DNA of 64,000 bases from an uncultured Pseudomonadales bacterium (GTDB lineage Bacteria > Patescibacteriota > Microgenomatia > UBA1400 > UBA12028). Shown in pieces: positions 10,736 to 57,533 of this stretch. The DNA lies in contig CAZWPK010000001.1 in the NCBI GenBank assembly GCA_964635905.1, positions 68,894 through 132,893 of the forward strand, written 5' to 3'. Position numbers and translations under genes: made by a program. Below the pieces are notes generated by a model. That model was not told the DNA's origin. It did no database searches and saw only the letters and a program-made list of their open reading frames with translations. Within the stretch, counting starts at the first letter, position 1; every line of letters begins with the position of its first letter.

Positions 10736-10752
10736 TATCTACACATTCTTTG

Positions 10753-11113: not shown

Positions 11114-11339
11114 CGGCTTATTTCCCAACCACTTGCTTTAGGGCATCAAGCACAAACTGGACCACAAACTTAATCAGTTGTGCGCCAAAGATAATCGTCT
11201 TTTCAAGAATTGACGTTCCTGCCTGTATAGCAACACGTTTAAAATCGTTTTTATCGGGTTGGTAGGGGGAGTTGTAGGCCATGGGCATAGTATACTCCAG
11301 ATACCGACATGTCGTCACGGTGCTACAATAGTAGGCTCT

Positions 11340-12311: not shown

Positions 12312-12437
12312 CCAGAATGCGTGGAAACCACCATTTTCGGTAGACATGATCCGTTCTGCTGTATCTAGAAGTAGAAAGATGTGGATAGATCATGTCTTGA
12401 AGTACGCGGTGAATGTTCTGGTAATGGTTAGTATGAT

Positions 12438-14218: not shown

Positions 14219-14755
14219 ATGGCAGTGACACGTCAAAAATTCTTTCTCGATTCTGGTTTTACTCTTCTTGAGTTAATTGTTGTGATGGCAATTATTGGCA
14301 TCCTCGCAATGCTGGCGGTAGGCAACTTTCAATCCAGTCGAATCAAAGCTAACGATGCACGACGGAAGAGTGATTTAAAACAAATCCAGGCTGCTTTAGA
14401 ACAATATCATGCAGACTTTGGAAACTATCCTGGATCTGCCAGTAATGGAACTATCCTAGGTTGTGGAGCGGGGACGTCAACGTGCAGTTGGGGTGCTGCC
14501 TTTTCGATTACTGGAGGGGCAGTGTATATGAGTAAATTGCCCTCAGATCTGTCTCCTCAACGGTACTATTATGTGGGAAGCACAACAGGTCGATCTTACC
14601 AACTGTTTACCACCCTACAAAATACTCGAGATAATGACAATACCACCTTCACTGCGATTGCACCCAACTGTGCCTCCACGGGGACACTGGCGTGTACCTA
14701 TGGAGTATCCAGTTCAAATGTCACGATCGGTAGTGCTGTATCTACCATGCCATAA
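14219..14755 (+). CDS. type IV pilin / pseudopilin (prepilin-type N-terminal cleavage/methylation domain)
   Basis: N-terminus ...SGFTLLELIVVMAIIGILAMLAVGNFQ (class III signal, G|FTLLE). C-terminal Cys pairs (GCGAGTSTCSWG; CASTGTLACT). Confidence 0.85.
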   Translation: MAVTRQKFFLDSGFTLLELIVVMAIIGILAMLAVGNFQSSRIKANDARRKSDLKQIQAALEQYHADFGNYPGSASNGTILGCGAGTSTCSWGAAFSITGGAVYMSKLPSDLSPQRYYYVGSTTGRSYQLFTTLQNTRDNDNTTFTAIAPNCASTGTLACTYGVSSSNVTIGSAVSTMP

Positions 14756-14765
14756 AGGAAATGCT

Positions 14766-15263
14766 ATGAAGATCAAAGTGCTTTCGCGTTTTGTCCTCCA
14801 ACAGGGGTTTAGCTTAGTGGAATTGATTGTGGTTATTGCGATTATCGGAATCCTTACTGGACTAGTGGTAACCAATCTTTCTGGCGCTCGGGAGCGTGCC
14901 CGTGATGCACGACGAAAAGCAGATCTTCGGGCTATACGGGATGCACTACAGCTGTATCAAAATGATTATGGTGCATTTCCTGGAAATAATGCTTCTGGCC
15001 AAATCTTAGGTTGTGGAGCCTCCGGAACATCTGCCTGTGCCTTTGGCAGTGCATTTAGCGCAAATGGGAATGTCTATATGGGGCGTATTCCGCAGGATCC
15101 ACTCAATCGGAGTACCTATGTGTATCGCTATGCGGCAAATGCAACCGTCGATTATTTGTTGACAACAAACCTAGAAAACATCTCCGATCCGGATATCGCC
15201 AAATCACAAACGCGTTGTAACGTGTCGACAGGTGGAACACAATACGTGGTGTGTAACCAATAG
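14766..15263 (+). CDS. type IV pilin / pseudopilin paralog
   Basis: MKIKVLSRFVLQQGFSLVELIVVIAIIGILTGLVVTNL. Shares the YxxDxGxxPG...ILGCGA...C..G.AFS core with the upstream pilin. ATG 14766 is in frame with the longer track ORF. Confidence 0.85.
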   Translation: MKIKVLSRFVLQQGFSLVELIVVIAIIGILTGLVVTNLSGARERARDARRKADLRAIRDALQLYQNDYGAFPGNNASGQILGCGASGTSACAFGSAFSANGNVYMGRIPQDPLNRSTYVYRYAANATVDYLLTTNLENISDPDIAKSQTRCNVSTGGTQYVVCNQ

Positions 15264-33500: not shown

Positions 33501-36500
33501 TGGTTAAGTCTCCACCGGCGTTAATGGTTAAGTTCACCACGTCACTGACGGTTCCCGTGGTGATATCAATGCCATTAATTGTTTCGTTGGTTGCAGCAGT
33601 GAGTGTCCCAGTTGTATTTAGGTTTCCGGAAGCATCAACTTGGAAGGCGTTTGCGGTGCCAGACGTCAGAGTACCCGAGACATCAAGATTTCCAGTGATT
33701 CCAGTAGAACCAGCCGTAATGGTGAGAGCATCCGAGGCAAAGGTAAGCGTAGGATCGGTAGCACCAACATCAAAGGTCCATACTACTCCAGAGCCGGATC
33801 CGAATGTTGTCGTTCCCAATTCCGTAGAGTCAAAGGTCACGGTGGGACTCCAACCTTCTCCCGGAGTTCCAGAAACATCGATAGCGGTGCCTTCGGTTAA
33901 GCCCGCGACATAATTACCCGTTGTATCAGTTCCTAAGGCTACAGAATCGGAGGAGATGGTGAGGGCGGTGGTGTTGGAGGCTCCAAGTGTAGCTGTGATG
34001 TCCCCAGTGAATGTATGACCGGATAAGAGAACGGTTCCTGAGAGGTCAGGGAAGGTAATGGTTTTGTCACTGGTGGTTGGATCCGTGACAGTGAAATAGG
34101 TTTCGATCGTGTTTGTGGTTGCTCCTTCAAAGATCAAGCCGGACTGACCAAACTTCGCGTTGTTGGCTGAGAGAGTGTGATCTCCAGAGAGGGCAGCGGT
34201 GAAATCAAAGGCAATATCATTCGCGTTCACAGCAATGCCGGTTCCAGCACCGATATCAAGGGTTAAGGCTCCGACGGTTCCACCCCCAGTTAAACCGGAT
34301 CCGGCAGTGACACCGGTTGTGGCATAGGTTGCCACATTGTTGGAGTCTACTAAGGTACCAGATCGACCATCGAGGAGCAATAATTCTGCTGTGGAAAGTG
34401 TTCCACCTGTAATCGTCAAATTGTTCGAGCCTAGAGCTAGAGTTCCTGCAGTGGTTATGGTTCCAGCAGTCAGTGTCATGGTGTCGGAGCCAAATGCGAT
34501 TGTTGGGTCGGTTGCACCCGCATCAAAGGTCCAGGTGATTCCTGATCCGGATCCATAGGTCGTTGTTCCCACTTCGGTAGAATCCCAGGCAATATCATCC
34601 GCATTAATATCAATCGCAGTTCCTTCTCCAACATTTAGGGTCACATCTCCAGAAACACCTCCTCCGGTCAACCCAGATCCCGCAGTTACCGATGAAATAT
34701 CTCCAGCTGCCCCAGCTGTGATGGCAGCATCTAAATCATCCAAGACATCTTGCACGGTGGTTGAGGCAGAGTTTCCGAATTCATCAAAAACACCAACTAA
34801 CGATGCACCAGAAGTAATGTTGTCGGAACCGACGTCATTTAATCCGATCGTTCCAATCGTTAAATCCCCACCCGCATTCACCGTAAGGTTGACGACATCC
34901 GTGACTGTCCCGGAAGAGATATCGATGCCATTGATGGTTTCTGCCGTGGCAGCGGTGATGGCTCCAGAGGCATCCACTTGGAAGGCATTTCCGGTTCCAG
35001 ATGTCAGTGTTCCAGAAATATCGAGGTTTCCGGCGATCGCGGTAGATCCAGCCGTGATCGTCAAAGCGTCAGATGCAAAAGCAAGCGTAGGATCGGTAGC
35101 TCCCACATCAAAGGTCCAGGTGATTCCTGATCCACTTCCGAATGTGGTCGTTCCCAATTCCGTAGAGTCAAAGGTCACGGTGGGGCTCCAAGCTTCTCCA
35201 GCAGTGCCTGAAATATCGATCGCAGTTCCTTCGGTAAGTCCTGCTACGTAGTTACCGGTTGTATCGGTACCTAGTGCCACGGAATCGGCCGCAATGGTCA
35301 GTGCGGTTGTGTTACTTGCTCCCAAGGTTGCAGTCACATCACCGGTGAAGGTATGTCCCGACAATAGTACTGTTCCTGACAAATCGGGGAGAGTAATGGT
35401 CTTGTCGGTTGTGGTTGGATCTGTAACTGCTAGGTAGGTTTCAATCGTGTTGGCAGTGGCACCTTCAAAGATGAGTCCTGATTGACCAAACTTGGATTCA
35501 GTGGCGGCTAGTGTGTGATCTCCAGAAAGAGCAGCAGTGAAGTCAAAGGCAATCGCGTCAGCGACAACACTAATTCCAGTTCCAGCACCAATATCCAACG
35601 TGACGTCTCCGCTTACTCCGCCGCCTGTTAATCCAGATCCAGCAGTCACGGAGGAGATATCTCCTGCAGAAGCTGTGGTGATGGCAGCATCTAAGTCGTC
35701 TAGAACATCTTGGACGGTTGTTGAAGCGGAATTACCGAATTCATCGAATACTCCAACCAAGGATGCACCGGAGGTAATATTATCTGTTCCGACGTCGTTC
35801 AAGCCAATAGCGCCGATCGTTAAGTCACCACCAGCATTTATCGTCAAGTTGACCACATCCGACACCGTTCCCGTGGTGATGTCGATCCCATTAATTGTTT
35901 CGTTGGTTGCAGCCGTTAATGTGCCTGTGGTGTTTACATTTCCCGAGGCATCAACTTGGAAGGCGTTCCCGGTTCCCGATGTGAGCGTTCCCGATACATC
36001 CAAGTTGCCTGCGACTGCTGTGGATCCAGCTGTGATGGTGAGGGCATCGGAGGCGAACGCTAAGGTAGGATCTGTCGCACCAACATCAAATGTCCAGGTT
36101 ACTCCAGAGCCAGATCCAAAAGTTGTTGTACCAAGTTCGGTAGAGTCGAACGTTACGGTGGGACTCCATGCTTCACCTGCGGAGCCAGAAATATCAATGG
36201 CAGTACCTTCGGTTAATCCTGCAACATAGTTTCCAGTGGTGTCTGTCCCTAGTGCTACAGAATCGGCGGCAATCGTTAACCCCGTCGAGTTATCAGAATC
36301 GAGTGTTGCGGTCACATCACCAGTAAATGTGTGGCCTGAGAGTAGTACAGTACCGGACAGATCAGGGAAGGTGATGGTTTTGTCAGAGGCTGTGGGATCG
36401 GTGATGGCAAAGTAGGTCTCAATCGTGTTCGCGGTTGCGCCTTCAAAGATCAAACCTGATACACCAAATTTGGATTCGTTGGCGGCCAGTGTGTGATCTC

Positions 36501-39500
36501 CAGATAATGCTGCAGTGAAATCAAAGGCGATCGCGTCAGCCGCTACACTGATTCCAGTTCCAGCACCAATGTTGAGTGTTAATGCGCCAACAGTCCCACC
36601 ACCGGTGAGTCCGGATCCTGCGGTAACTCCGGTGGTGGCATAGGTTGCCACATTGTTGGAGTCTACTAAGGTACCTGATCGACCATCGAGGAGCAATAAT
36701 TCTGCTGTGGAAAGTGTTCCACCCGTAACCGTCAGATTGTTGGATCCAAGAGCTAACGTTCCTGCTGCCGTAATGGTTCCTCCAGTGAGTGTGATGCTAT
36801 CGGAGGCAAAGGCAATCGTAGGATCGGTTGCCCCTGCATCGAATGTCCAGGTGATTCCCGATCCCGATCCAAAGGTCGTCGTTCCAACTTCCGTCGAATC
36901 CCAAGCGATATCATCCGCGTTAATATCGATAGCCGTGCCTTCACCAATATTTAAAGTGACATCTCCAGATACTCCTCCGCCTGTTAATCCTGAACCAGCA
37001 ACGACGGAGGTAATATCTCCAGCACCACCGATACCGGTAACATCGATCCAACTTAAGACTCCGGCGCCATCCGTAATCAAGACCTGGTTGGAACTTCCAT
37101 CGTTAGTTGGGAGGGTGTAGGTTACATCTTGGGTTTGGGTTCCAGTTTGGAACACGGTGGAATAGGCATTGTCACCATTGGAGATCAAAGCTAATTTTCC
37201 AGGGACGTTACTACTACCACTGCCAATGTCGGTTCCGATGGTGATTCCTGTTGCTCCGGCGACATGGAGTGCAGAGGAGGGTGTTTGGGTTCCAATTCCT
37301 ACGTTGGCGGCAATGATGTTGACCTCATCCGTCGCTTGATCATCAAACTCAATGCGTCCTGCAGAAGCACCCAATCCTAACCAGTCATCATCCGCAGTGG
37401 CATCGGTAAACACGTCGCCAGTTGCCATCGAACCGACAGTAGTGATGTCGCCAGTTCCAGCACCAATTCCAGTTACCGATTGCCAAGAGAGAACGCCACT
37501 CCCATTGGTAGTGAGCACATAATCACTGGTACCGTCATCCACGGGTAAGGTGAGGGAATAACTACCTGTTTGAGAGGCGCTTGGTTGGAGAGTCACTGAG
37601 TAATCGGTAGCTCCAAGTTCGTTGTAAACAACGATTGATCCGTCTGTTCCATTACTTCCAAAAGTTGCAGTTCCACCGTTCACCGCGAGTGTACCAGACG
37701 TAGAAATGTTTCCAGAACCATCAACTTGGAATGCATTAGCGGTTCCACTTGCTAATGTTCCTGAGACATCGAGATTTCCAGTAATCCCTGTTGAAGTTGC
37801 TGCAATGGTGAGCGCATCGGAGGCAAAGGTAAACGTCGGATCGGTGGCTCCGACATCAAAGGTCCAGACGACTCCAGATCCTGAACCGAACGTGGTTGTT
37901 CCCAGTTCGGTGGAATCAAAGGTCACGGTGGGACTCCAAGCTTCTCCGGCAGTTCCAGAAACATCGATGGCTGTGCCTTCGGTTAAGCCCGCGACATAAT
38001 TACCGGTTGTATCGGTACCTAGTGCCACGGAATCGGCTGCGATGGTGAGGGCGGTGGTGTTACTTGCCCCTAAGGTTGCAGTCACGTCGCCAGTGAACGT
38101 GTGGCCAGAGAGAAGTACCGTACCTGTGAGGTCAGGGAAGGTAATGGTCTTGTCTGCACTCGTTGCATCCGCAACCGAGAAATACGTTTCAATCGTATTG
38201 GCCGTCGCACCTTCAAAGATAAGCCCCGAGACACCAAACTTTGATTCGTTAGCGGCTAGTGTGTGATCTCCAGAAAGAGCAGCCGTGAAGTCAAAGGCAA
38301 TCGCGTCAGCGGCTACACTGATTCCCGTTCCCGCTCCGATATCCAGGGTGACGTCGCCGGAAGCTCCGCCGCCAGTGAGTCCTGATCCAGCCGTTACAGA
38401 AGAAATATCTCCAGCAGCTCCTGCGGTAATGGCGGCATCTAAATCATCCAAGACATCCTGAACGGTAGTGGAATTGGAATTGGTAAACTCATCAAAGACT
38501 CCAACCAGTGAGGAACCGGAGGTGATGTTTGTTGTACCCACATCGTTTAAGCCGATCGTTCCAATCGTTAAATCTCCACCGGCATTGACGGTGAGGTTGA
38601 CGACATCCGTAACAGTTCCGGTGTTGATATCAATCCCATTGATGGTTTCATCGGTGGCGGCACTGATGGTACTGGCTGTGACAATGGCACCAGCCGTTGA
38701 AATAGACCAATCATCCCCACCTGTTAACGCCAGCGTTGTAGAAGCGTTGTTGTTCCCAATCGTAATCACATCCGCAGCTGTACTGTTGGTTGCGATGTTA
38801 ACGGTATCTGCAGCAGAGGAGCTGACACCCGCAATATCGATCGTCTTTCCGGTGGTGTTGTCCCCGATGTTAATTCTCCCCGTTCCTTCAATCAAAATAT
38901 CATTGCGGACATCGGTGTTATTGGCGATGACAAAGTTATCGGCATCCACACTGATGTAATAATCTTCAGCTGCAGAAGTGGTGTCATTAAAATAGAGGGT
39001 AGGATCAGCCTGTTGGAATGAATGATCACTGGTCCACACAAAGGCATAGGCCTGATCAACGGCAACGCTATCCGTTGCAACGGTAATTCCATTTCCAGCT
39101 CCAACATCCAAGACTCCGGTAGTCAAGGTAAGTCCATTTCCGGCAGTGGTACTGGCCAGCTCTAGTGCGGCTGTCCATCCTTCCCCAGCAGTTCCGGTTA
39201 CGGTAATTCCATTGGTACCAGTGACGTTGGCGACATAATTTCCGGTTGTATCGGTACCTAGTGCCACGGAATCGGCTGCGATGGTGAGGGCGGTGGTGTT
39301 ACTTGCCCCTAAGGTTGCAGTCACGTCGCCAGTGAACGTGTGGCCAGAGAGAAGTACCGTACCTGTGAGGTCAGGGAAGGTAATGGTCTTGTCTGCACTC
39401 GTTGCATCCGCAACCGAGAAATACGTTTCAATCGTATTGGCCGTCGCACCTTCAAAGATAAGCCCCGAGACACCAAACTTTGATTCGTTAGCGGCTAGTG

Positions 39501-42500
39501 TGTGATCTCCAGAAAGAGCAGCCGTGAAGTCAAAGGCAATCGCGTCAGCGGCTACACTGATTCCCGTTCCCGCTCCGATATCCAGGGTGACGTCGCCGGA
39601 AGCTCCGCCGCCAGTGAGTCCTGATCCAGCCGTTACAGAAGAAATATCTCCAGCAGCTCCTGCGGTAATGGCGGCATCTAAATCATCCAACACATCCTGA
39701 ACAGTGGTTGACGCGGAGTTTCCAAATTCATCAAACACTCCAACTAGTGAGGCTCCGGAAGTAATGTTATCCGTTCCAACATCGTTCAAGCCAATCGTGC
39801 CAATGGTCAGATCTCCACCGGCATTGATGGTCAAATTCACCACATCCGAGACGGTACCGGTCGTAATATCAATGCCGTTAATCGTCTCATTGGTTGCAGC
39901 GGTGAGTGTCCCCGTGGTATTGAGGTTCCCTGATGCATCCACTTGGAAGGCGTTGGCAGTTCCAGAGTTGAATGTTCCGGAGACATCGAGGTTTCCTGTA
40001 ATTGCGGTAGCGCCTGCGGCAATGGTGAGTGCATCGGAAGCAAAGGTCAGGGTGGGATCGGTGGCACCAGAGCCATCGAAGGTCCAGGTGAAGTTCGAGT
40101 TCGCTCCAAAGATGGTGGTGCCGACTTCAGTCGAATCAAACGTGACGGTGGGACTCCATCCTTCACCTGCGGCACCGCTAATATCAATCGCAGTTCCTTC
40201 GGTGAGTCCGGCAACATAGTTCCCAACGGTCTGGGTACCTAAGTCAACGGCATTATTGGCAATCGAAATATTGGCTTCATTGGACGGTGAGGCGATCAAG
40301 GAAAATTCTGTGCCAAAATCCAAGGTATCCACGTTGGTGCCAACCGCAACATCATTATTCTCCACGTTGACCACGGCAAACGAAGCACCCGTATCGGATC
40401 CACATTCCCACAAACTGGTCGCATCATTCCATTTCAGAACTTGGCCATCCGAACACCCTTGGAGTAATCCAATGCGATCGGTGTCGACTTCTAGTCCCGA
40501 TGCAGATCCCGTGGATCCCGTACCATCGGCCGAAATCAATTGCAGGGCATCGGCATCCAAATATCCTGTGGCGGTTGTCAGCGTAACTGGTGTAGACCCA
40601 GCCAGCAATTGACCACTTACCAGGACGTTTCCACCGGAGAAGACAAATTGATCAGAGGTATTATAGGACAAACTACCAGTATCTCCAGTGGATGAATACA
40701 GCGACAGGGTTGCATCGGCAGTGGCGCCAGTCCCAATCCGAACCAGGTTACTTGCCACATTCACGGAAAAAGAAGAGGCTAGGGTAGAGCCACCAATCGC
40801 AACGTCATCCGTCGTGGCGGTAAGGTAGGAGAGGGTTCCGGAGTCTGTCCACTTGGAAGCACCCGATCCCATGGCAGAGTCAAAATCATCCAAGACGTCT
40901 TGAAGCGTCGTTGCATTGGAGTTATTAAATTCATCATACACACCAATCAAGGCTGCTCCGGAGGTGGTGTTACTGGAGCCGATGTCATTGAGTCCAATCC
41001 CGCCAATCGACAGATCTTGACCCGCTGTTAAGTTCAGAGAACCCGCACTGTTAATGGTTAACACGTCGGTTCCATCCGAAGCTTCGATCACAAAGTAGTT
41101 TGCAGTTTGGGTGCTGTTTCCTTGAATGAGGAATTGGATCTCATCGCTATCGCCATCAATGCCTAGTTTTGCTAAGTCGAGTGTCGAGCCAATAGTCAGA
41201 TCATCCGTGGTTGCGGTCAGATAGGTTACATCTCCACCATCCGTGAAGAGATTTAAGGATGCGCCATCGCCCCAACTGAAGCCACCGGTTGCAGAGTTAT
41301 AGGAGAGCAGCGCCCCATTAGCTGCGGTTCCAGAGACTTTGATATCGACAGCTGCGATACTGCCATCTTCTAACTCAGCGGAAGCAATCGAGGTCCCTAA
41401 ACTGGTTTGCAAGGATCCATTGGAGACTAAGAGTCCCGTGCCGGTCAAGTCCGTAAAGGAATCTCCATTCAGTGAGAGGGTACCAATCGTTGCCGTGGTG
41501 AGTTGGGCGTTGGGACCATACAAGGTGCCGTCCAATTCAATGTCCCCTGAAACGAATAAATCTCCGGCTGCGGAGTCAATACTTCCTGGAGTGGAATCTC
41601 CAATCAACACCGCTCCACCACCCGGATCAATGACAAGATCTCCCGGCGTTGAAAGCGTATTCCCCGCAATGGTTAAGTCTCCGCCTACGGTTGTGGTACT
41701 CGTGGCGGATCCAATGGTGATGAGCTGGGCAATCGACGGGAAGATGGAAGCGGATGTTACGGAGGTGAGCAACTGTCCACTTTCCAGGGTTAAGGAGCCA
41801 GCAATGGTTGCGTCTTTTGCCACACGGAAATTCTCATTGAGCACGGTATCAACGTTGAGCGAGAAGCGTGTGTACTCTAAGGCGGTGCTACCTAAGATAA
41901 CCGACGGCATCTGCACTGATTCCGGAGCTTTTTTGCCCAAAACGAGGAATCTAGGAGCTTGTAATCGAGGAAGACGGAAGCCTAAGGCAATCGTCTGTAG
42001 TTTTGCAAACTCCACACTGGGAGTACTCGTCACGATCAAGGACGAGAGAGCAAGTAGGGCAATACAACACACCGTTACCAAGGCTGGGCGCAGATCCGCA
42101 ATACTGAGGCTTGGAAACGACACCGTGGGGAGATGGAAAGAAGGTAGCCGTAAGGAGAGCTGCTTGTGCGTGGAAACGGAGTGGGTGATCGAGGACCTCT
42201 CAACGAGTGGTGCGGATACGATGGGTGTACTGGTGGTTGCCACTACAGTAGGGGTGACCGCCGTTTCGCCATAGGGAACGGAAGTGGAGACTGGGGCAGT
42301 ATATAACCCGCGTTCGATGGCTTTCTTGTGTTTCTTGAATTCCTGAAGTTGGAGATACGAATAGCGTCGGTGACCTCCCAAAGTTCGAAGCGGTTCTAAG
42401 ATTCCACGATCTTCCCAGCGTCGGAGAGTTTTTTCAGAAACTTTAAGGATCCTGGCGGCCTCTTGAATGGAAAGTGAGCTAGTATCGAAGTGATTTTCCG

Positions 42501-42510
42501 GCAAACTCAT
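27553..42510 (-). CDS. giant (4985 aa) repeat-rich surface protein: N-terminal MerR-type HTH, single TM anchor, long tandem-repeat ectodomain, phage tail-fibre-like modules
   Basis: Uninterrupted 14958-nt ORF. Residues 13-52 (SIQEAARILKVSEKTLRRWEDRGILEPLRTLGGHRRYSYLQL) match the MerR/excisionase HTH. TM at residues 143-162. At least 8 near-identical units of about 410 aa (NETINGIDITTGTVSDVVNLTINAGGDLTIG...). Motifs NVGIGTQTPSSALHV and NVGIGTTGPDGKLDV resemble the fibre-module signature GNVGIGTTxPxxKLxV. Gly/Thr/Ser-rich beta-solenoid-like composition. Confidence 0.8.
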   Translation of the reverse strand: MSLPENHFDTSSLSIQEAARILKVSEKTLRRWEDRGILEPLRTLGGHRRYSYLQLQEFKKHKKAIERGLYTAPVSTSVPYGETAVTPTVVATTSTPIVSAPLVERSSITHSVSTHKQLSLRLPSFHLPTVSFPSLSIADLRPALVTVCCIALLALSSLIVTSTPSVEFAKLQTIALGFRLPRLQAPRFLVLGKKAPESVQMPSVILGSTALEYTRFSLNVDTVLNENFRVAKDATIAGSLTLESGQLLTSVTSASIFPSIAQLITIGSATSTTTVGGDLTIAGNTLSTPGDLVIDPGGGAVLIGDSTPGSIDSAAGDLFVSGDIELDGTLYGPNAQLTTATIGTLSLNGDSFTDLTGTGLLVSNGSLQTSLGTSIASAELEDGSIAAVDIKVSGTAANGALLSYNSATGGFSWGDGASLNLFTDGGDVTYLTATTDDLTIGSTLDLAKLGIDGDSDEIQFLIQGNSTQTANYFVIEASDGTDVLTINSAGSLNLTAGQDLSIGGIGLNDIGSSNTTSGAALIGVYDEFNNSNATTLQDVLDDFDSAMGSGASKWTDSGTLSYLTATTDDVAIGGSTLASSFSVNVASNLVRIGTGATADATLSLYSSTGDTGSLSYNTSDQFVFSGGNVLVSGQLLAGSTPVTLTTATGYLDADALQLISADGTGSTGSASGLEVDTDRIGLLQGCSDGQVLKWNDATSLWECGSDTGASFAVVNVENNDVAVGTNVDTLDFGTEFSLIASPSNEANISIANNAVDLGTQTVGNYVAGLTEGTAIDISGAAGEGWSPTVTFDSTEVGTTIFGANSNFTWTFDGSGATDPTLTFASDALTIAAGATAITGNLDVSGTFNSGTANAFQVDASGNLNTTGTLTAATNETINGIDITTGTVSDVVNLTINAGGDLTIGTIGLNDVGTDNITSGASLVGVFDEFGNSASTTVQDVLDDLDAAITAGAAGDISSVTAGSGLTGGGASGDVTLDIGAGTGISVAADAIAFDFTAALSGDHTLAANESKFGVSGLIFEGATANTIETYFSVADATSADKTITFPDLTGTVLLSGHTFTGDVTATLGASNTTALTIAADSVALGTDTTGNYVANVTGTNGITVTGTAGEGWTAALELASTTAGNGLTLTTGVLDVGAGNGITVATDSVAVDQAYAFVWTSDHSFQQADPTLYFNDTTSAAEDYYISVDADNFVIANNTDVRNDILIEGTGRINIGDNTTGKTIDIAGVSSSAADTVNIATNSTAADVITIGNNNASTTLALTGGDDWSISTAGAIVTASTISAATDETINGIDINTGTVTDVVNLTVNAGGDLTIGTIGLNDVGTTNITSGSSLVGVFDEFTNSNSTTVQDVLDDLDAAITAGAAGDISSVTAGSGLTGGGASGDVTLDIGAGTGISVAADAIAFDFTAALSGDHTLAANESKFGVSGLIFEGATANTIETYFSVADATSADKTITFPDLTGTVLLSGHTFTGDVTATLGASNTTALTIAADSVALGTDTTGNYVAGLTEGTAIDVSGTAGEAWSPTVTFDSTELGTTTFGSGSGVVWTFDVGATDPTFTFASDALTIAATSTGITGNLDVSGTLASGTANAFQVDGSGNISTSGTLAVNGGTATFGSNGTDGSIVVYNELGATDYSVTLQPSASQTGSYSLTLPVDDGTSDYVLTTNGSGVLSWQSVTGIGAGTGDITTVGSMATGDVFTDATADDDWLGLGASAGRIEFDDQATDEVNIIAANVGIGTQTPSSALHVAGATGITIGTDIGSGSSNVPGKLALISNGDNAYSTVFQTGTQTQDVTYTLPTNDGSSNQVLITDGAGVLSWIDVTGIGGAGDITSVVAGSGLTGGGVSGDVTLNIGEGTAIDINADDIAWDSTEVGTTTFGSGSGITWTFDAGATDPTIAFASDSITLTGGTITAAGTLALGSNNLTVTGGTLSTAELLLLDGRSGTLVDSNNVATYATTGVTAGSGLTGGGTVGALTLNIGAGTGISVAADAIAFDFTAALSGDHTLAANESKFGVSGLIFEGATANTIETYFAITDPTASDKTITFPDLSGTVLLSGHTFTGDVTATLDSDNSTGLTIAADSVALGTDTTGNYVAGLTEGTAIDISGSAGEAWSPTVTFDSTELGTTTFGSGSGVTWTFDVGATDPTLAFASDALTITAGSTAVAGNLDVSGTLTSGTGNAFQVDASGNVNTTGTLTAATNETINGIDITTGTVSDVVNLTINAGGDLTIGAIGLNDVGTDNITSGASLVGVFDEFGNSASTTVQDVLDDLDAAITTASAGDISSVTAGSGLTGGGVSGDVTLDIGAGTGISVVADAIAFDFTAALSGDHTLAATESKFGQSGLIFEGATANTIETYLAVTDPTTTDKTITLPDLSGTVLLSGHTFTGDVTATLGASNTTALTIAADSVALGTDTTGNYVAGLTEGTAIDISGTAGEAWSPTVTFDSTELGTTTFGSGSGITWTFDVGATDPTLAFASDALTITAGSTAIAGNLDISGTLTSGTGNAFQVDASGAITAATAETINGIDISSGTVTDVVNLTVNAGGDLTIGTIGLNDVGSDNITSGASLVGVFDEFGNSASTTVQDVLDDLDAAITAGAAGDISSVTAGSGLTGGGVSGDVTLNVGEGTAIDINADDIAWDSTEVGTTTYGSGSGITWTFDAGATDPTIAFGSDTMTLTAGTITTAGTLALGSNNLTITGGTLSTAELLLLDGRSGTLVDSNNVATYATTGVTAGSGLTGGGTVGALTLDIGAGTGIAVNANDIAFDFTAALSGDHTLSANNAKFGQSGLIFEGATTNTIETYFTVTDPTTSDKTITFPDLSGTVLLSGHTFTGDITATLGASNTTALTISSDSVALGTDTTGNYVAGLTEGTAIDVSGTPGEGWSPTVTFDSTELGTTTFGSGSGVVWTFDVGATDPTLTFASDALTITAGSTGITGNLDVSGTLTSGTANAFQVDASGNLNTTGTLTAATNETINGIDITTGTVSDVVNLTINAGGDLTIGTIGLNDVGTDNITSGSSLVGTFDEFANSASTTVQDVLDDLDASITTALAGDISSVTAGSGLTGGGVSGDVTLNIGEGTAIDINADDIAWDSTEVGTTTYGSGSDFTWTLNGSGVTDPTLAAGNNSLTLTAGTITAAGTLALGSNNVTVTGGTLSTAELLLLDGRSGTLVDSNNVATYATTGVTAGSGLTGGGTVGALTLNIGAGTGISVAADAIAFDFTAALSGDHTLAANESKFGVSGLIFEGATANTIETYFSVADATSADKTITFPDLTGTVLLSGHTFTGDVTATLGAANTTALTIASDSVALGTDTTGNYIAGLTEGTAIDVSGSAGEAWSPTVTFDSTELGTTTFGSGSGITWTFDAGATDPTLAFASDALTITAGSTGITGNLDVSGTLISGTANAFQVDASGAITAATAETINGIDINTGTVSDVVNLTINTGGDLTIGAIGLNDVGTDNITSGASLVGVFDEFGNSASTTVQDVLDDLDAAIAGSGGDITSVVAGSGLTGGGITGDVTLNVGEGTAIDINADDIAWDSTEVGTTTYGSGSGFTWTFDAGATDPTLAFASDSMTLTAGAITAAGNLTVSGTTGLTLSGVGGDITFANGEKIDNDTDGTVTITAPTTAVSGDLSVGGGDITTAGGENIDLGEATADTATFYINSVAELALNATNLTAGAAEGNSLGSAAAEWEQLFLGDDNGIAFGLDQDWTLGYDEATDDRLELVTAGTSGMLIQSATATGTGLATTFNALSSGTGLALSSTSTALTSGSLASLDWSPGSATTASGDLFRINIGTNGTTTGNLFDIEDTGSSLFSVSESAITANLPTSFTAAGDVSMAYDLLFTNQTAAYIKSYGPLILQAGESFENNNLSFQTYGTGNAVFDFQGTGDVVINSADPNIILDTKTATDTDFWLGVQEDAGSDDDDLFQIGDGTTPGTNAFLTINTSGNVGIGTTGPDGKLDVLATSGSQLRLTYADGSTYSDLTTDTNGDLTIAPSGGDLTLSGNTTISGTTGLTLSGVGGDITFANGEKIDNDTDGTVTITAPTTAVSGDLSVGGGDITTAGGENIDLGEATADTATFYINSVAELALNATNLTAGAAEGNSLGSAAAEWEQLFLGDDNGIAFGLDQDWTLGYDEATDDRLELVTAGTSGMLIQSATATGTGLALSVNALSSGTGLSLASTSTAFTSGFLANFDWSPGSATSATGDLFRINIGTNGSTSGNLFSVADTASSLFSVSETAITAALPVAFNAPGDVSMAYDLQFTNQTTSSIKSKAPLYIEAGENYESNDLTLRTYNGGDIVADLTGTGNFVVSNTSTSVTGTTATDLNVAGGFITTNDLDTISLLVRNGNTGAITMTNVGTAGAQGDPGVLTVEGAGSSTTAYNLITAYNSLTRSDAASVFRVRADGTVYGEAAFQTTGADLAEYFEKEGDLPTNEVVGINYETGKVRRFQSGDKLLGITSNRAGFVGNYPKGKTDEQIAASYALVGFTGQLDVKLDDQEGSIRPGDPLRPSTQSGRATKANKPGYIIGYALEAWTPGSGDRDVLVYVNPSFADPTMALDNQGQMVADGLAQLASNPEAEANKTLIRSIAASLSEIVESTSNVFTTLIAGTIQSSSIQTDTLTVGGKSLHNLVIDTIAQNGYLVSQSERVDTREASISGILTAAEATISGNLTAKNITEMANRLITAEASISSLLAQDSTISGQQKDELLASLNPEIKLIVSDLLSDSADWNTEASSSADLISADAVFANEYLNVQGTASITNAHINTALIVGSSMAFDKNSINLISDTESTLYVQATGTGTLDLLAGALTLNREGGLVVTTDALFTQDVTVQGQLSTTLIAPESKILGIQLASESGVLSSESGKLAIKSGMTEVASIDASGSATFAKLTLSAPTTASGSATNASTGKAVLKQGQTDVIIYTTQVSSDSLIYITPTSSTNNQVLYVSGKQGQDETTTTVGGFTVTLDQALSKDVEFNWWIIN
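30041..31680. repeat. direct duplication of about 1.26 kb inside the giant gene (type B unit x2)
   Basis: 30041-30420 is base-identical to 31301-31680. It encodes two copies of TISGTTGLTLSGVGGDITFANGEKIDNDTDGTVTITAPTT...GMLIQSATATGTGLA. Confidence 0.75.
32600..40250. repeat. tandem array of near-identical coding repeats of about 1.24-1.34 kb inside the giant gene (type A, at least 7-8 units)
   Basis: Identical stretches can be seen directly, e.g. 38042-38266 = 39281-39505. Repeated protein blocks AT[N/D/A]ETINGIDI[T/N/S][T/S]GTV[S/T]DVVNLT[I/V]N[A/T]GGDLTIG recur. Array boundaries are approximate. Confidence 0.7.
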
Positions 42511-51359: not shown

Positions 51360-52160
51360 ATGAAGAAATTAAAAAAAGAACTGTTACTCACGCTGTATTG
51401 TGTGCGCAGCAGTACCCATCCCGCACTTTCCGTGGGTGTGTCGTATCCTTTCCTGAATTCCATCCTTGAGTACTCTTCTAGCTCTATTCGGGAAGTCATC
51501 TCGAGCTGGGTTGCGTTGGGAGTGGTAACTGTAGTGCGTCACAACTCTATCCTGCACTTTACGCTTTCTTCCCGAGGTATGGAGCTCGTGACAGCCTCAT
51601 TTCCGGCATTTTTTGCACCAAATGGACGACAGGAGCCTGAGCAAGTGACGGTCTGTATCTGTACTGCCAAAACTAGTTCCAAAGAGTATCAAGACGTAGC
51701 GTCAACACTAGCGCAGTGGGGAACACAACTCACACGGACTGTATGGATTGGACCACCGCTCTCCACCATCCAACAACAGAAGCTCTATCACAACACAAGC
51801 GTTGTCGTAGTTACTCAGGGAATTCTTGCAGGAAATCTTTCTCAAGTGGGAGGAATCGACGCAGCACTCCAGCATCGACTGCAACAATATGTGAAAAAAG
51901 TCTCTACAGAGCTGCTTGCGTTAAAGCAGATGAAAGTGGCAAAATTCCCACGTCCCACTTCCGCGGTAAAAAAGATGCAATTATTGCTCCAAATATTTAC
52001 GCAAAACGACTGGAAGTTGGCGGCAATAGCAGGCAATATATTACCGCATAGTCAAGAAACCAGCACTCACTTCGATGAATTCTTAACACTGACGTCAATT
52101 CTATTCGTTCATCTATTACTGCATGATAAAACCAGAAGAATACCCAATGCGTCAATATAA
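51360..52160 (+). CDS. hypothetical protein
   Basis: 266-aa ORF with no motif recognised. Confidence 0.4.
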   Translation: MKKLKKELLLTLYCVRSSTHPALSVGVSYPFLNSILEYSSSSIREVISSWVALGVVTVVRHNSILHFTLSSRGMELVTASFPAFFAPNGRQEPEQVTVCICTAKTSSKEYQDVASTLAQWGTQLTRTVWIGPPLSTIQQQKLYHNTSVVVVTQGILAGNLSQVGGIDAALQHRLQQYVKKVSTELLALKQMKVAKFPRPTSAVKKMQLLLQIFTQNDWKLAAIAGNILPHSQETSTHFDEFLTLTSILFVHLLLHDKTRRIPNASI

Positions 52161-53269: not shown

Positions 53270-54190
53270 ATGACCCAGCAGAGCACTGACCAAGACCAGG
53301 TCTTTATTTCGGAATTTTTCGCACGTTATCCATGGTTGACAGATGAGACAAACATCAGTCGGATCCTCATGGATCGGTGGTATCAGGAGTATCGGGCGGA
53401 GCTTCCCCACACGACTGCTCTCGCGGCGCATTTCTTAAAGCAGGTGGAGAAGAATCTACTCTATCTGCTTTCAGAGGCACAGGGACTGGAGTTAAAGGCT
53501 CCCGCCCGCTATCCATTGCCCGTGCCCGCATCGAAGTGGGAAAAGCCAGGTGATCTCGCGAATCAGCTCTTCAAACCAGGGAGCTACGGGAACGCAACCG
53601 TGCCTCAGCCCATCGAGGCGAAGGAGGTAGAGGAACCCAAACCGGTCGATCCGGAAGACCCCATCCCTGACATGGACCTCCCGCCACGTCTGGAGCGTTG
53701 GATCGTCAACATGATCACCGTCCTGGACCCGGATGCGGAGATCCGGAGCAGGTTGGTAATCGCCTACGGTGCGGACATTGCGACCTCGATCGTCACTGCG
53801 ACCCGGAACACATGGGGGGCAGACCCAGGATCTGTTGCAGTTGCGGTGTTTCTCAACGTCATGGGCAGTTTCTCTGAGCTCGTGTTCCGGTTCGGCTTCA
53901 CAAGCTTCATGCATCGGATTCGCAGGTGGGACACGCGCAGTGCTGGCGATTTTGTCTTGCATCTCATTTATCTAGGGATGGCGCTCTTCGTTGCGCTCTT
54001 GGGCGGCGGAGGCTTCGTGTATAACTTTTCGATGACCGTCGAGTTCTTCGATAACCTGGCGCCAGCGGCGCTGGTGGTCTTCGAGATCGCGATGCCCATC
54101 AGCGTAGGCGCACTGTTCGGACTCCTCGTTACCTCGATCATGACAATGATCGAGTTGGAGTACCTCCTGGACAAGGTTCGCAAGAACTAA
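53270..54190 (+). CDS. hypothetical protein with C-terminal membrane helices, encoded in a GC-rich island
   Basis: 306 aa. Local GC is clearly higher than the flanks (frequent GCG/CGG/GGC codons). 2-3 C-terminal TM helices. An intrinsic terminator follows. Confidence 0.55.
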   Translation: MTQQSTDQDQVFISEFFARYPWLTDETNISRILMDRWYQEYRAELPHTTALAAHFLKQVEKNLLYLLSEAQGLELKAPARYPLPVPASKWEKPGDLANQLFKPGSYGNATVPQPIEAKEVEEPKPVDPEDPIPDMDLPPRLERWIVNMITVLDPDAEIRSRLVIAYGADIATSIVTATRNTWGADPGSVAVAVFLNVMGSFSELVFRFGFTSFMHRIRRWDTRSAGDFVLHLIYLGMALFVALLGGGGFVYNFSMTVEFFDNLAPAALVVFEIAMPISVGALFGLLVTSIMTMIELEYLLDKVRKN

Positions 54191-54292: not shown

Positions 54293-54481
54293 TCACTTCT
54301 GACGGAAGTTTCGCGAAGCAGACGACGGTGAAGTCCTTTTGGCATTACGATAGTTTTCCATTCTTTCAAAATTTAGCCGCGTCGCGCGCGGCTTAAAGAA
54401 AGCGATCCCCACCAGGGTGAGGATCCCGAAGCCCGCGCATCCCAGCGCGAGGCCAACTGTTAGTAAACTATTAACGTCCAT
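54293..54481 (-). CDS. small single-TM protein (62 aa) in the GC-rich island
   Basis: MDVNSLLTVGLALGCAGFGILTLVGIAFF, then a basic tail. GC-rich like its neighbour. Confidence 0.4.
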   Translation of the reverse strand: MDVNSLLTVGLALGCAGFGILTLVGIAFFKPRATRLNFERMENYRNAKRTSPSSASRNFRQK

Positions 54482-54675: not shown

Positions 54676-56880
54676 TTAATCTTCAACCGGTTTTGTTGTC
54701 TCAACTTCTTCTTTCTTTTCTTCCTGTTTCTCCTGACTCTTTGGTCCTGCCATCATGGTTTTCTTCTTGGCATATTGTTCTCTGGAGGAGCGTAACACCT
54801 TGGCTTTGTTTTGATTATTGGAGCTTGCTAGCCCCAGCGTATGGGCGGGGAATGGTCTGGAGGTGGTCCCATCTATCATGAGCTTGATAATGATCTGGTA
54901 GCGGGAGAGGGAGACTAAGTCCTCTTGGGTATACATATTCCCGTATTCTTGCTGCAACTGTGCCGCATCGGAAGCTCCCAGGATGAAACTGGCAATGGTG
55001 CCAGCATTTCCAAAGATTGCAGATTTTACCTCTGGAGGGATCTGGTCCATGTACTGGTTGGCCAGGATTAAGTTGAGGCGATACTTTCGTGCCTCGGAGA
55101 GAATCTTGATGAAACTGGTGGTGGCAAAGTTTTGAAACTCATCGATATAGAGATAGAAATCCTTGCGATCGGCTTCTGCTTTGTAGACGCGATTCATGGC
55201 GGCTAACTGAATCTTGGTAATCAACATGGCGCCTAGAAGGGCGGCATTATCTTCACCCAGTTTTCCCTGGGAGACGTTAATCAAGAGAATCTTGCCGGAA
55301 TCCATGATGTCTTCGATGTTGATGGAGCTGTGTTGGGCGTTGACCACATCGCGGATGATCGGGGAGGTCACAAACTGTCCCACCTTGTTTAAGATCGGGG
55401 AAATCGCCTCGGTCCGCAGGCGTTCCTGCATGGGGTTAAACTCCTTGATCCAGAAGTTCTTTAACACGGGATCTTGCAGATTCTCTACCACGCGTTCTCG
55501 ATACTTCTCATTGGTCAGCATCGTAATTACGTCTTCTAATCGTGCTTGCTTGGACAGCAGGGTTAACAGGGTATTGCGCAAGATATATTCCAGTCGTGGT
55601 CCCCAAGAGTGGGCATACATCTTCTGAAAGATAGCCACAATTCCGGAGGCAATCAGTTCGCGATGGACTTCCGAGCCTCCCTCAAAGAGGTTGATCTTGA
55701 CTACGGCCTCGGGGTCGGATGGATCCAGATAGATCACATCGTTGATGCGGTGTTTGGGAATGTAATCGAGGATCGTCTCGATTAAGTCTCCATGCGGATC
55801 AATGACTGCCAGCCCTTTACCATGCTTTAAATCATTAATGATCATGTTGGCAAGTAACGTGGATTTTCCGGTACCAGACTTTCCCACCACATACATGTGA
55901 CGCCGTCGATCTTCTTCTTTGATTCCAAAGATCTGCTGAGCGTTCTTTAACTCGGTCTTGGCAAACAGATTGACATTATTTTTCTCTTCCTCAGGTAATG
56001 TGGCAAAGATAGGCAGGGTATCCGGTGGTTCTCCCCGTAGTGATTTTCCCCAGGCAATATTCTTGACGGAATTTACCAGCTTGTGGGGGAGATGACAGAG
56101 GGCAGCTAACTCTTCTTCGCTACAGTACAGTTTTCCAAACCATGGGGTGCGTGTCGTCATCAGGGAAAGCAATTTCTTATTCCCAAATAAACTGCTCTTT
56201 AATTCCAGACTATTCGTCTCACTGCTAAAGGCGTTATACGCATGATCTAAATCATGCACGATCTGGGTGGCACGTTCCGGTGTTGCTGCCTGTGCCAATA
56301 TTCCAATCCCACACTCAAACCCGACTTGGGCTAACTTTTTACTGATCTGTTCTTTGTGGGGATGCATTTTGGCAGGATCCGCAATTACCGATTGACCGGT
56401 ACTCTTCCAGGATTCCTTGGCTTTGCGCAAATGAATCTGAATCAAGGCACATTCTTCGGGCATGAGCTTGCTTAGATTCGAAAACACCGAGGCCAACAGA
56501 TCACTATCCGGATTCGTGGAGACCGTCTTTAGGGGCAAGTAGGCCGCATTCCGCAGCTTTAATTCGCGTGCATGCTTGGGTCTGGTATGCAAAAACTCAT
56601 CAAGAGGGTTATGTTCCAGCTTGGTAATCAGTGCTTCGGGGTAGGCTGCCGTTAACTGGCTATGAATGAAACTCTCCAGATGAGCAGGGATGGTCAAGAA
56701 GGTATAGATTGTTTGTCCCTGATTAAAGAACTCGACCGTAATGGATGGAGCTTGCTTGAACACATCTAGTAATCCGTGGGGAGGTGAAGGGAGGGTAGCA
56801 AAAAACTGCGCAGCCGCAGAAGATCCTTGCGGGCTTTCTCGATGATTTCTGATCTCAAAGGTGATGCTCTGCGCACTCAT
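54676..56880 (-). CDS. soluble P-loop ATPase of the TraD/VirD4/TrwB (type IV coupling protein) / DUF87 AAA-like superfamily
   Basis: Walker A YVVGKSGTGKSTLLANMI. Walker B FYLYIDEFQNFAT. Arginine-finger-like ARKYRLNLILANQY. 734 aa with no TM helices. Acidic/lysine-rich C-terminal tail. Confidence 0.7.
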   Translation of the reverse strand: MSAQSITFEIRNHRESPQGSSAAAQFFATLPSPPHGLLDVFKQAPSITVEFFNQGQTIYTFLTIPAHLESFIHSQLTAAYPEALITKLEHNPLDEFLHTRPKHARELKLRNAAYLPLKTVSTNPDSDLLASVFSNLSKLMPEECALIQIHLRKAKESWKSTGQSVIADPAKMHPHKEQISKKLAQVGFECGIGILAQAATPERATQIVHDLDHAYNAFSSETNSLELKSSLFGNKKLLSLMTTRTPWFGKLYCSEEELAALCHLPHKLVNSVKNIAWGKSLRGEPPDTLPIFATLPEEEKNNVNLFAKTELKNAQQIFGIKEEDRRRHMYVVGKSGTGKSTLLANMIINDLKHGKGLAVIDPHGDLIETILDYIPKHRINDVIYLDPSDPEAVVKINLFEGGSEVHRELIASGIVAIFQKMYAHSWGPRLEYILRNTLLTLLSKQARLEDVITMLTNEKYRERVVENLQDPVLKNFWIKEFNPMQERLRTEAISPILNKVGQFVTSPIIRDVVNAQHSSINIEDIMDSGKILLINVSQGKLGEDNAALLGAMLITKIQLAAMNRVYKAEADRKDFYLYIDEFQNFATTSFIKILSEARKYRLNLILANQYMDQIPPEVKSAIFGNAGTIASFILGASDAAQLQQEYGNMYTQEDLVSLSRYQIIIKLMIDGTTSRPFPAHTLGLASSNNQNKAKVLRSSREQYAKKKTMMAGPKSQEKQEEKKEEVETTKPVED

Positions 56881-56898
56881 ACAGTGTTAAGTGTAGCA

Positions 56899-57213
56899 TT
56901 ATTCTTGTTTGCGAAGTTTGCGCAACTCCGATTGTGTATGCTGATGGACAATCGAAATGATGTAAGTCTGGTAGGGAAGGCGACGTTGATTTGCCACGGT
57001 CTGGATGTCTGCCAGATCTGCTTCACTGATACGGAGTGAGATCATTTTATTTTTCCGCTGTTTTGCAGAGTTTGCAGCAATTTTTTGATACCGTTTTTTT
57101 TCTTCCTCGAAGTTGGGAATTGTTGTTAAGGAACCGCTTTCAAACGCATCTTCGATTTCTTGCTCTTGTGGATCTAAGATAATGGTGTGCTCGTCAGGAT
57201 TATAGTTTTTCAT
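56899..57213 (-). CDS. ribbon-helix-helix protein, BrnA/CopG-like antitoxin-type
   Basis: C-terminus ISLRISEADLADIQTVANQRRLPYQTYIISIVHQ matches the BrnA-type RHH (I.LRl.eelle.lk..A...G.pYQtli...l..). Start ATG at 57213 has GAAGAGGT 6 nt upstream. The longer track ORF is an in-frame extension. Confidence 0.55.
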   Translation of the reverse strand: MKNYNPDEHTIILDPQEQEIEDAFESGSLTTIPNFEEEKKRYQKIAANSAKQRKNKMISLRISEADLADIQTVANQRRLPYQTYIISIVHQHTQSELRKLRKQE

Positions 57214-57533
57214 AATTACCTCTTCGATAAATAATATTTTGTTGCTTTTCGACTTGGGTAGCACGTCTTTATAAATATTTTTTCTGCATCCTCTACGAAG
57301 GGGACAAAGAAAACATAGGCCTCTATTTCAATTTTTCTCTTCATTCCACCGAATCGTCTTCATACATTCTCAATCCACCCATAGTGTAATACGGCGTATA
57401 TACAATGTCAATTCATCGCATTACAGTATTGAGTTGCTTTCTCGACCGATAAGACCTATAATAACAATCTACTCTCACCCCATACTACATGGGGAATGAG
57501 AGTCTTGTCCTTTGATTTCTAGCGGAGGCAAAA

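Follow-up and report, generated by a model that had tools for sequence, protein, structure and literature searches.

A DUF8128–VirD4/TrwB-type ATPase carried across Patescibacteria stands downstream of an apparently decayed brnTA cassette

A 64-kb stretch of DNA from an uncultured bacterium of the Patescibacteriota (GenBank assembly GCA_964635905.1, contig CAZWPK010000001.1, positions 68,894 to 132,893; hereafter the window) encodes a soluble 734-aa protein that is a VirD4/TrwB-type coupling-protein ATPase also matching DUF87. Analysis of the open reading frame (ORF), Pfam matches, homologs and an AlphaFold2 (AF2) model identifies the gene (positions 54676–56880, minus strand) as an orphan homolog of the type IV coupling proteins (T4CPs) of Patescibacteria, in which the ATPase is preceded by an N-terminal DUF8128 domain. 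With moderate confidence, we favor the explanation that the protein is a phylum-wide core ATPase acting as a nucleic-acid motor that docks on a type IV secretion system (T4SS), and that the ribbon-helix-helix (RHH) gene directly upstream is an unrelated leftover of a brnTA toxin–antitoxin cassette.

Results

The 734-aa ORF carries the Walker A motif (GKSGTGKS, residues 333–340; 55861–55884, minus strand) and Walker B motif (YLYIDE, residues 576–581; 55138–55155, minus strand) reported in an earlier preliminary description of this DNA. Across 40 homologs, residues G333, K334, G336, K339, S340 and T341 of the Walker A region and D580 and E581 of Walker B are unchanged. Pfam, AF2 and Foldseek place these motifs in an ATPase domain spanning residues ~300–705 (54766–55983, minus strand), which has a RecA-like fold with an inserted all-alpha domain as in TrwB. 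Among the profiles named in the preliminary description, TrwB_AAD_bind matches residues 322–614 (42.8 bits against a cut-off of 20.5, E = 4.3e-11) and DUF87 matches residues 326–538 (26.9 bits against 23.2, E = 6.2e-6), and TraG-D_C falls slightly below its cut-off on the window protein (20.8 against 22); precomputed T4SS-DNA_transf and TraG-D_C matches are present on many homologs. NCBIfam models gave partial sub-threshold matches only, to TraD, CD1115-type VirD4, CedD and TrbC. A sequence search of the Protein Data Bank (PDB) reached TrwB only, around Walker A, with E = 4e-4 for the single sequence and E = 6.5e-5 for a profile. The full-length AF2 model, built on 40 homologs with a mean predicted local distance difference test (pLDDT) score of 83.5, has a helical insertion at residues ~404–528, where TrwB has its all-alpha domain, and Foldseek aligns its C-terminal half to TrwB over ~410 columns with target-normalized TM-scores (TMt) of 0.60–0.67 and root-mean-square deviations mostly of 4.4–6.3 Å (up to 7.1 Å); DotL, Cag-beta and HerA are also among the Foldseek matches. 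The coupling-protein/DUF87 family call of the preliminary description is thus borne out by two Pfam families above cut-off, the TrwB fold and plasmid homologs that stand beside relaxase genes.

TrwB is anchored in the membrane by two N-terminal helices and lacks a VirB4-like N-terminal domain, and its partners are the TrwC relaxase and the RHH protein TrwA. The window protein resembles TrwB of R388 (PDB 1E9R, 1GKI) in the fold of the nucleotide-binding and all-alpha domains and in the surroundings of Walker A, but it is soluble, bears DUF8128 and has no relaxase that we could find nearby. Its highest 19-residue Kyte–Doolittle mean is 1.23, a value that argues against any membrane helix, and the AF2 model contains none, in agreement with the earlier statement that the protein lacks a membrane anchor. 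The protein ends in a Lys/Glu-rich tail (residues 709–734; 54679–54756, minus strand) that is disordered in the AF2 model (pLDDT <50) and has no zinc finger; a zf_Tbcl_2 domain is present at this position in relatives of the split and B1 types described below.

Residues 1–296 (55993–56880, minus strand) form the DUF8128 domain (PF26449), delimited by precomputed Pfam annotation, a domain-only AF2 model and Foldseek. The precomputed match is flagged 'faint' on this exact protein and carries no such flag on relatives; a local Pfam scan returned no PF26449 match on the ATPase, probably because the model is absent from that copy of the database. A profile of residues 1–296 retrieved 3,426 cluster representatives, and among those listed the domain is N-terminal in fused proteins of 700–1100 aa or stands alone in proteins of ~400–450 aa. 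The N-terminal 300–330 aa, previously described as a unique 330-aa domain, therefore belong to a large Pfam family, for which a full-text literature search with the term 'DUF8128' found no paper. The two domains are joined by a linker motif, N-I-A-W-G-K-x-L-x-G-E-P-P-x-x-L-P (residues 274–290; 56011–56061, minus strand), that is confined to fused family members and in which W277, G278, L281, G283, E284, P285, P286, L289 and P290 are unchanged across the 40 homologs.

Structural comparison suggests that DUF8128 has a fold like the N-terminal domain of VirB4. The DUF8128-only AF2 model (pLDDT 91.3, predicted TM-score 0.89) matches 14 PDB chains at E ≤ 1e-3, all of them TrwK/VirB4 of R388, with E-values of 1e-5 to 9e-4 and query-normalized TM-scores (TMq) of 0.45–0.56, and the full-length model aligns to TrwK end to end over ~860 columns (E = 3e-14). 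Assignment to the VirB4 N-terminal domain leans on this end-to-end alignment and on the lack of matches to other P-loop proteins, the aligned target residues being unreported. The DUF8128 profile also gave a weak hhalign match to the N-terminal domain of a Staphylococcus aureus plasmid T4CP (E = 0.005), with matching order along both proteins. The window protein shares the two-domain layout of TrwK/VirB4 (PDB 7O41, 7O42, 7O43, 8RTB, 8RTD) but differs in having an ATPase domain that is VirD4-type by sequence and in lacking a VirB4 sequence signature: Pfam scans found no CagE_TrbE_VirB or AAA_10 match on the window protein or on 120 homologs. Also unlike the TrwK/VirB4 setting, virB3, virB6 and virB8 genes were not found near the window gene.

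The ATPase is distributed throughout the phylum. A word-indexed search returned more than 7,800 homologs, and those with a source name are from Patescibacteria (candidate phyla radiation). The best 120 share 52–98% identity with the window protein, nearly all covering at least 93% of the query, and some lie on contigs longer than 1 Mb; the closest relatives are 54–77% identical across 96% of the length. When one genome per species was scanned, relatives were confirmed in at least 594 Patescibacteria species genomes across the classes of the phylum, including Woesebacteria, Gottesmanbacteria, Falkowbacteria, Paceibacteria, Saccharibacteria, Absconditabacteria, Peribacteria, Doudnabacteria and others. 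In relatives with 77% and 76% identity, synteny is kept, the gene lying between that for leucyl-tRNA synthetase (LeuRS) and the F-ATPase operon, and in more distant orthologs the ATPase gene lies within gap-pgk-[ATPase]-tpi or beside uvrD, the UvrD helicase gene being divergently adjacent in several. Comparison of the window with a Woesebacteria ortholog locus gives 76.7% identity for the ATPase, 73.5% for AtpD, 62% for LeuRS, 62% for the phosphoglycerate mutase iPGM, 57.6% for AtpA and 55% for AtpG. The preliminary description had associated the ATPase with a GC island; its GC content and GC content at third codon positions (GC3) are 0.478 and 0.559, near those of LeuRS (0.484 and 0.519) and AtpD (0.485 and 0.513), and the GC-rich stretches of the window are instead the giant ORFs at ~29–42 kb and a 306-aa ORF, orf306, at 53270–54190. 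Only 9 relatives were found among 2.9 million viral contigs. The number of genomes, the synteny, an identity above that of AtpD and LeuRS, the neighbor-like GC and the scarcity of viral relatives together establish the ATPase gene as a vertically inherited, strongly constrained core chromosomal gene.

Conjugation genes were sought around this gene. Most large ORFs of the window were scanned against Pfam; the matches were to housekeeping genes, type IV pilin-like genes and giant Laminin_G_3 surface proteins, and neither a relaxase nor a T4SS component turned up. Plasmid relaxase, VirB4-like, PrgI and Tcp proteins, used as tblastn queries, likewise had no match, whether in the 64-kb window or in ~95 Patescibacteria ATPase loci. 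The comEA-comEC genes lie 3.6 kb from the ATPase gene, and the preliminary description had raised a link with ComEA/ComEC. This arrangement is kept in one close relative, is altered in the 77%-identical relative by a sigma factor gene in place of comEA, and is absent from the more distant orthologs examined; adjacency does not support the link.

Relatives of the window protein occur in several gene layouts. Clustering the ORFs of 84 related loci separated three types, the first of which is the fused DUF8128-ATPase gene of the window. In the second, split type, a 415–530-aa DUF8128 gene, often with an N-terminal transmembrane helix, stands immediately 5′ of a 510–650-aa ATPase gene whose product ends in a treble-clef zinc finger; DUF8128 and ATPase are adjacent separate genes in ~35 loci, and genes for SecD, SecF and a protein with Sigma70_r4 and HARE-HTH domains lie upstream of the split pair in many of them. 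The third, ATPase-only type, which we call B1, has a gene for a small single-pass membrane protein before the ATPase gene and an RNase_T-type exonuclease gene after it, within a conserved FtsZ / NrdR-NrdD-NrdG / DivIC / DacB operon. Because DUF8128 and the ATPase occur both fused and as neighbors, we argue that they work together, and the transmembrane helices of many relatives argue for a membrane-associated role. An N-terminal transmembrane helix is frequent in distant DUF8128 members; among the 120 closest homologs, only 2 have a predicted transmembrane segment. No conserved small membrane partner was found beside the fused soluble subfamily when one was sought, and a 62-aa ORF with a transmembrane segment at 54293–54481 is species-specific. 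In a neighbor-joining tree of ATPase domains, plasmid sequences lie outside two paralogous Patescibacteria clades, and the window type falls together with the split and B1 forms. The window subfamily, from Woesebacteria and other Microgenomates-type genomes, is fused and lacks both the transmembrane helix and the C-terminal zinc finger, the latter being carried by Paceibacteria, Saccharibacteria and Falkowbacteria-type relatives.

Individual loci illustrate these layouts. In six B1 loci (L011, L012, L018, L025, L033 and L035, positions ~1–13000), genes for FtsZ, NrdR-NrdD-NrdG and a small single-pass transmembrane protein precede the T4CP-like ATPase gene, and the zinc-finger ATPase is followed by the RNase_T-type exonuclease, a GT2 glycosyltransferase, DivIC and a D-Ala-D-Ala carboxypeptidase; in L011 the exonuclease start overlaps the ATPase stop. 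Split DUF8128 and ATPase genes are found in the Paceibacteria and Saccharibacteria loci L045, L048, L052, L071 and L080 (~1200–7900) and L010 (3729–7778), with SecD, SecF and a 350-aa Sigma70_r4 and HARE-HTH protein encoded upstream.

Full-length counterparts of the window protein are also encoded on plasmids of monoderm bacteria. A tblastn search against plasmids found full-length homologs, including the N-terminal domain, on 639 records, mostly from Bacillus, Streptomyces, Staphylococcus and Clostridium. Those of S. aureus, Embleya and B. subtilis are 20–29% identical over 89–95% of the query (E down to 5e-75), and the S. aureus and B. subtilis proteins have no transmembrane helices. On S. 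aureus NZ_CP062373.1, the homolog (IF710_RS13255) stands immediately 5′ of a 'replication-relaxation family' gene, with a 'conjugal transfer protein' and an 861-aa ATP-binding protein after it. The order on Embleya NZ_CP108778.1 (OG928_RS01290) is PrgI family, XF1762 family, ATP-binding protein, homolog, replication-relaxation family and NlpC/P60, and on B. subtilis CP120602.1 the homolog (P5635_00045) is grouped with TcpD and TcpE family genes. The presence of full-length homologs in plasmid conjugation clusters identifies the architecture as that of a class of monoderm conjugative coupling proteins, in agreement with the published derivation of the T4SS genes of Patescibacteria from the monoderm MPF-FATA class (Quinonero-Coronel et al. 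2025, PMC12102498). The coupling proteins paired with 'replication-relaxation family' genes align with the window protein along both the N-terminal domain and the ATPase, but theirs adjoin a putative relaxase and a VirB4-like ATPase, neither of which was found near the ATPase gene within the 64-kb window.

Phage genomes carry homologs as well. Bacillus phage G (JN638751.1, 90943–93105) encodes a full-length homolog, gp156, that is 23% identical over 90% of the query (E = 2e-39), and ~60 other Bacillus-group phages have partial homologs.

Upstream of the ATPase gene, on the same strand, a 104-aa RHH gene of the brnA antitoxin type (56899–57213, minus strand) stops 18 nt before the ATPase start. 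The sequence GAAGAGGT at 57218–57225, 4 nt upstream of the RHH ATG, provides the good Shine–Dalgarno site noted in the preliminary description; an alternative 121-aa form of the ORF begins at a GTG at 57264. RHH matches Pfam CopG_antitoxin (PF12441) with 25.7 bits over residues 52–89, slightly below the 28-bit cut-off, and a beta-alpha-alpha pattern is visible at residues 56–92. In a database of 5.8 billion sequences, only two RHH clusters were found. One is RHH itself, which occurs on six contigs from this organism with the ATPase downstream each time, and the other is a single 52%-identical protein, P0122, which scores 33.6 bits against PF12441 and is encoded in locus L091 immediately 3′ of a BrnT-like gene, within an island of other toxin–antitoxin genes and a Y1 transposase. 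The sub-threshold Pfam match and this relative favor the earlier BrnA-type assignment. A weak NikA-like match was also recorded (E = 0.044).

RHH had further been described as an orphan with no BrnT-like partner, and here the sequence tells otherwise. The BrnT-like toxin of L091, which itself scores 30 bits against a BrnT_toxin cut-off of 34.5, aligns by tblastn over its residues 65–101 to window positions 57332–57222 on the minus strand (70% identity, E = 2.5e-13). Together with a DNA alignment in which the 5′ two-thirds are missing or degraded, this match defines a truncated brnT pseudogene that retains only the 3′ third (57219–57332, minus strand), immediately upstream of the RHH start; the 42-aa ORF that remains gave no match in Pfam. 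The toxin-then-antitoxin order of BrnT/BrnA modules (PF04365, PF12441) is kept, along with the sub-threshold PF12441 match of RHH, but the window toxin gene is down to its last ~37 codons, a truncation that would prevent the module from working as a toxin–antitoxin pair. No RHH homolog occurs in the 84 related loci, and in the syntenic relatives at 77% and 76% identity the position is empty. The absence of the cassette from the closest relatives argues that it is unrelated to the ATPase, contrary to the association proposed at first. RHH, with a GC content of 0.413 that is below its surroundings, appears to be the surviving antitoxin of a decayed brnTA cassette whose insertion ahead of the ATPase gene is peculiar to this species. 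A promoter scan also found a sigma-70-like match, TTGACA-17-TACACT, upstream of the brnT remnant (57383–57411, minus strand). This site, possibly the promoter of the cassette, could today drive read-through into the ATPase gene, and we treat it as a lead only; in the promoter and terminator scan of the region, matches were not above shuffle expectation.

Discussion

Orphan coupling proteins of Patescibacteria are already known as a very large family, and the window ATPase is an ordinary member of it. A recent survey counted 5,713 VirD4-type homologs in 2,918 Patescibacteria genomes, of which 148 lie near virB4, noted few relaxases and raised the exaptation of orphan VirD4 homologs (PMC12102498). 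The window gene shares the family and architecture of these proteins, is likewise chromosomal, away from virB4 and without a relaxase, and shows no material difference from them. What the present analysis adds is of modest value: the VirB4-like assignment of DUF8128, the evidence from fused and split forms, the plasmid counterparts beside relaxase genes and a measured constraint.

In the explanation we favor, the ATPase would assemble into a hexameric ring that threads a polymer at the expense of ATP, the polymer being most likely DNA or nucleoprotein, and DUF8128, as a VirB4-like N-terminal domain, would probably recruit it to a membrane machine. That the polymer is probably nucleic acid follows from the known members of the family and from the zinc finger and exonuclease coupling in relatives. 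Among candidate machines (a T4SS, ComEC or none), the T4SS-docking version is ranked highest and takes the largest share of our confidence; the most likely machine would be the MPF-FATA-type T4SS of Patescibacteria, encoded elsewhere and without a coupling protein of its own. The brnTA promoter may now add to transcription of the ATPase gene, and RHH would not be a functional partner of the ATPase. The T4SS of Saccharibacteria is essential, and its cluster has no recognizable coupling protein or relaxase (Wang et al. 2023, PMC10633639).

Several observations weigh against this explanation. SEML1_0293 of Southlakia epibionticum is likely the counterpart of the window-protein clade, as judged by architecture, neighbors and a neighbor-joining tree of other Saccharibacteria loci. 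Transposon sequencing (Tn-seq) scored it as non-essential at all time points, immediately 3′ of an essential sigma-like gene, SEML1_0294 (annotated RpoS), which is the counterpart of the Sigma70_r4 and HARE-HTH protein (PMC10633639 Table S1). With the T4SS essential and SEML1_0293 non-essential, the ATPase would be dispensable for the essential T4SS function in S. epibionticum at least. A second T4CP-like gene, SEML1_0142 (TraM-recognition-domain, 1019 aa), and the upstream SEML1_0141 were scored essential (PMC10633639 Table S1), and the statement that the T4CP homolog is dispensable therefore covers only one paralog. The VirB4-like fold of DUF8128 is read from a predicted structure and Foldseek, and hhalign gave no significant similarity between the DUF8128 profile and a plasmid VirB4-like protein (E = 0.37). 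In the gene neighborhoods examined, the window subfamily has no constant neighbor partner. Finally, one ortholog, P0109 (54% identity; locus L094, 8930–10927), adjoins genes for a 665-aa serine recombinase, a DUF2958 protein and a phage-like protein, suggesting that some copies of the family may ride on integrated or mobile elements.

This last context is one of the points that speak for a different reading, raised in the preliminary description, in which the locus is the remnant of an integrated conjugative or mobilizable element, the ATPase being the last coupling protein of a decayed integrative and conjugative element and RHH an accessory or relaxosome-type protein. The full-length homologs that are bona fide members of plasmid conjugation clusters, the weak NikA-like match of RHH, and the toxin–antitoxin remnant and GC-rich orf306 that adjoin the ATPase gene point the same way. 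We nevertheless regard this reading as highly improbable and already largely refuted by the phylum-wide occurrence of a constrained gene in housekeeping contexts. Relatives in at least 594 species genomes, synteny with LeuRS and F-ATPase genes at 76–77% identity, conservation above that of AtpD and LeuRS and a GC and GC3 like those of the neighbors all oppose it, as do the lack of relaxase, VirB4, PrgI and Tcp homologs in the window and ~95 loci, the absence of RHH, itself part of brnTA, from other loci and the position of plasmid sequences outside Patescibacteria in the neighbor-joining tree. A role as an anti-phage defense ATPase of the HerA or MADS mad8 type is equally hard to credit: PADLOC reports a mad8 match (E = 4.1e-16, 57 bits, residues 325–620) and weak HerA matches, but these span the shared P-loop domain only, no defense partner genes were found nearby, and the conserved, syntenic inheritance throughout the phylum is unlike that of patchy defense genes.

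Two other readings keep the ATPase as a DNA motor and change its machine, and we consider each unlikely. As a cytoplasmic DNA-uptake motor, a hexamer would dock on ComEC/ComFC and pull in single-stranded DNA, like ComFA in Firmicutes. Patescibacteria are naturally competent, with ComEC, DprA and ComFC listed as com components and a ComFA motor not mentioned, and comEC is needed for transformation and dispensable for growth (PMC10633639). Both comEC and the likely counterpart SEML1_0293 are non-essential in Tn-seq, a further point in favor of uptake. So is the position of the comEA-comEC genes, 3.6 kb off in the window and again near the gene in one close relative. Relatives with a treble-clef zinc finger, translational coupling to an RNase_T-type exonuclease and a place beside nrdDG fit a role in nucleic-acid handling. 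Against it, the com adjacency is not conserved, with the sigma factor in place of comEA in the 77%-identical relative and glycolysis or UvrD contexts elsewhere. We know of no precedent for a VirD4-type ATPase that works with ComEC. The ATPase could instead be a housekeeping DNA translocase apart from secretion, acting like FtsK or HerA in chromosome segregation, repair or end processing. Membership of the FtsK-HerA superfamily, with HerA among the fold matches and DUF87/HerA profile matches, favors such a role, along with the B1-type operon containing FtsZ, NrdR-NrdD-NrdG, a DEDD exonuclease, DivIC and DacB, the divergently adjacent UvrD gene of several orthologs and the very high sequence constraint. 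Yet Saccharibacteria have an annotated ftsK (TM7x_00370, PMC10768705), so that a replacement for FtsK is unneeded; SEML1_0293 is non-essential; the N-terminal transmembrane helix of many members, or the small transmembrane protein before them, points to a membrane task; and neighborhoods vary between classes.

Patescibacteria rely on their hosts for nucleotides. That DUF8128-T4CPs are a domesticated coupling-protein lineage, now a core motor that moves nucleic acid between Patescibacteria and their hosts throughout the phylum, is a possibility that we raise tentatively and hold to be doubtful. On this view, they could supply the energizer or substrate receptor that is missing from the pilus-bearing, relaxase-less T4SS, or serve the ComEC pathway in the same way. 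The question matters in a phylum whose T4SS is essential in one tested species without a recognized coupling protein or relaxase, and in which thousands of orphan T4CP homologs are encoded elsewhere. A VirB4-like N-terminal domain on a VirD4-like ATPase would also be an informative intermediate for the origin of T4CPs from VirB4-like ATPases. The analysis offers handles for experiment in the domain boundaries, the fused and split forms, the candidate docking partners and the likely ortholog SEML1_0293 in a genetically tractable species. For annotation, the locus would be recorded as something other than a mobile-element scar, with RHH as a probable leftover antitoxin.

Other features of the window

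Between the ATPase gene and the ATP synthase operon lies orf306 (53270–54190, plus strand), which encodes 306 aa with a hydrophobic C-terminal half, has a GC of 0.56 and a GC3 of 0.70 against 0.47 for the window, and has no Pfam, NCBIfam or PADLOC match. It is missing from the 77%-identical syntenic locus L001, and therefore looks like a recent insertion at this site. A convergent 266-aa ORF (51360–52160) was considered as a diverged 'replication-relaxation' protein and set aside when BLASTP found no similarity; it has no Pfam, NCBIfam or PADLOC match and is not conserved in L001.

Four consecutive very large ORFs, of 711, 1553, 1640 and 4985 aa, occupy positions 15665–42510 on the minus strand. 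TPR repeats occur in the 711-aa product, six Laminin_G_3 domains and DUF2341 in each of the 1553- and 1640-aa proteins, and the 4985-aa ORF (27553–42510) coincides with a GC plateau of 0.50–0.52; all four are probably surface or adhesin proteins. Two overlapping ORFs on the plus strand at 14219–15263 (14219–14755 and 14571–15263) are type IV pilin or pseudopilin genes, each with an N_methyl prepilin motif and a T2SSG-like domain, and their overlap hints at a wrong start codon in one of them. Just after an ORF at 9553–10257 come two tRNA-Ala genes on the plus strand (10248–10319 and 10753–10825), with anticodons GGC and CGC and a spacing of ~430 nt.

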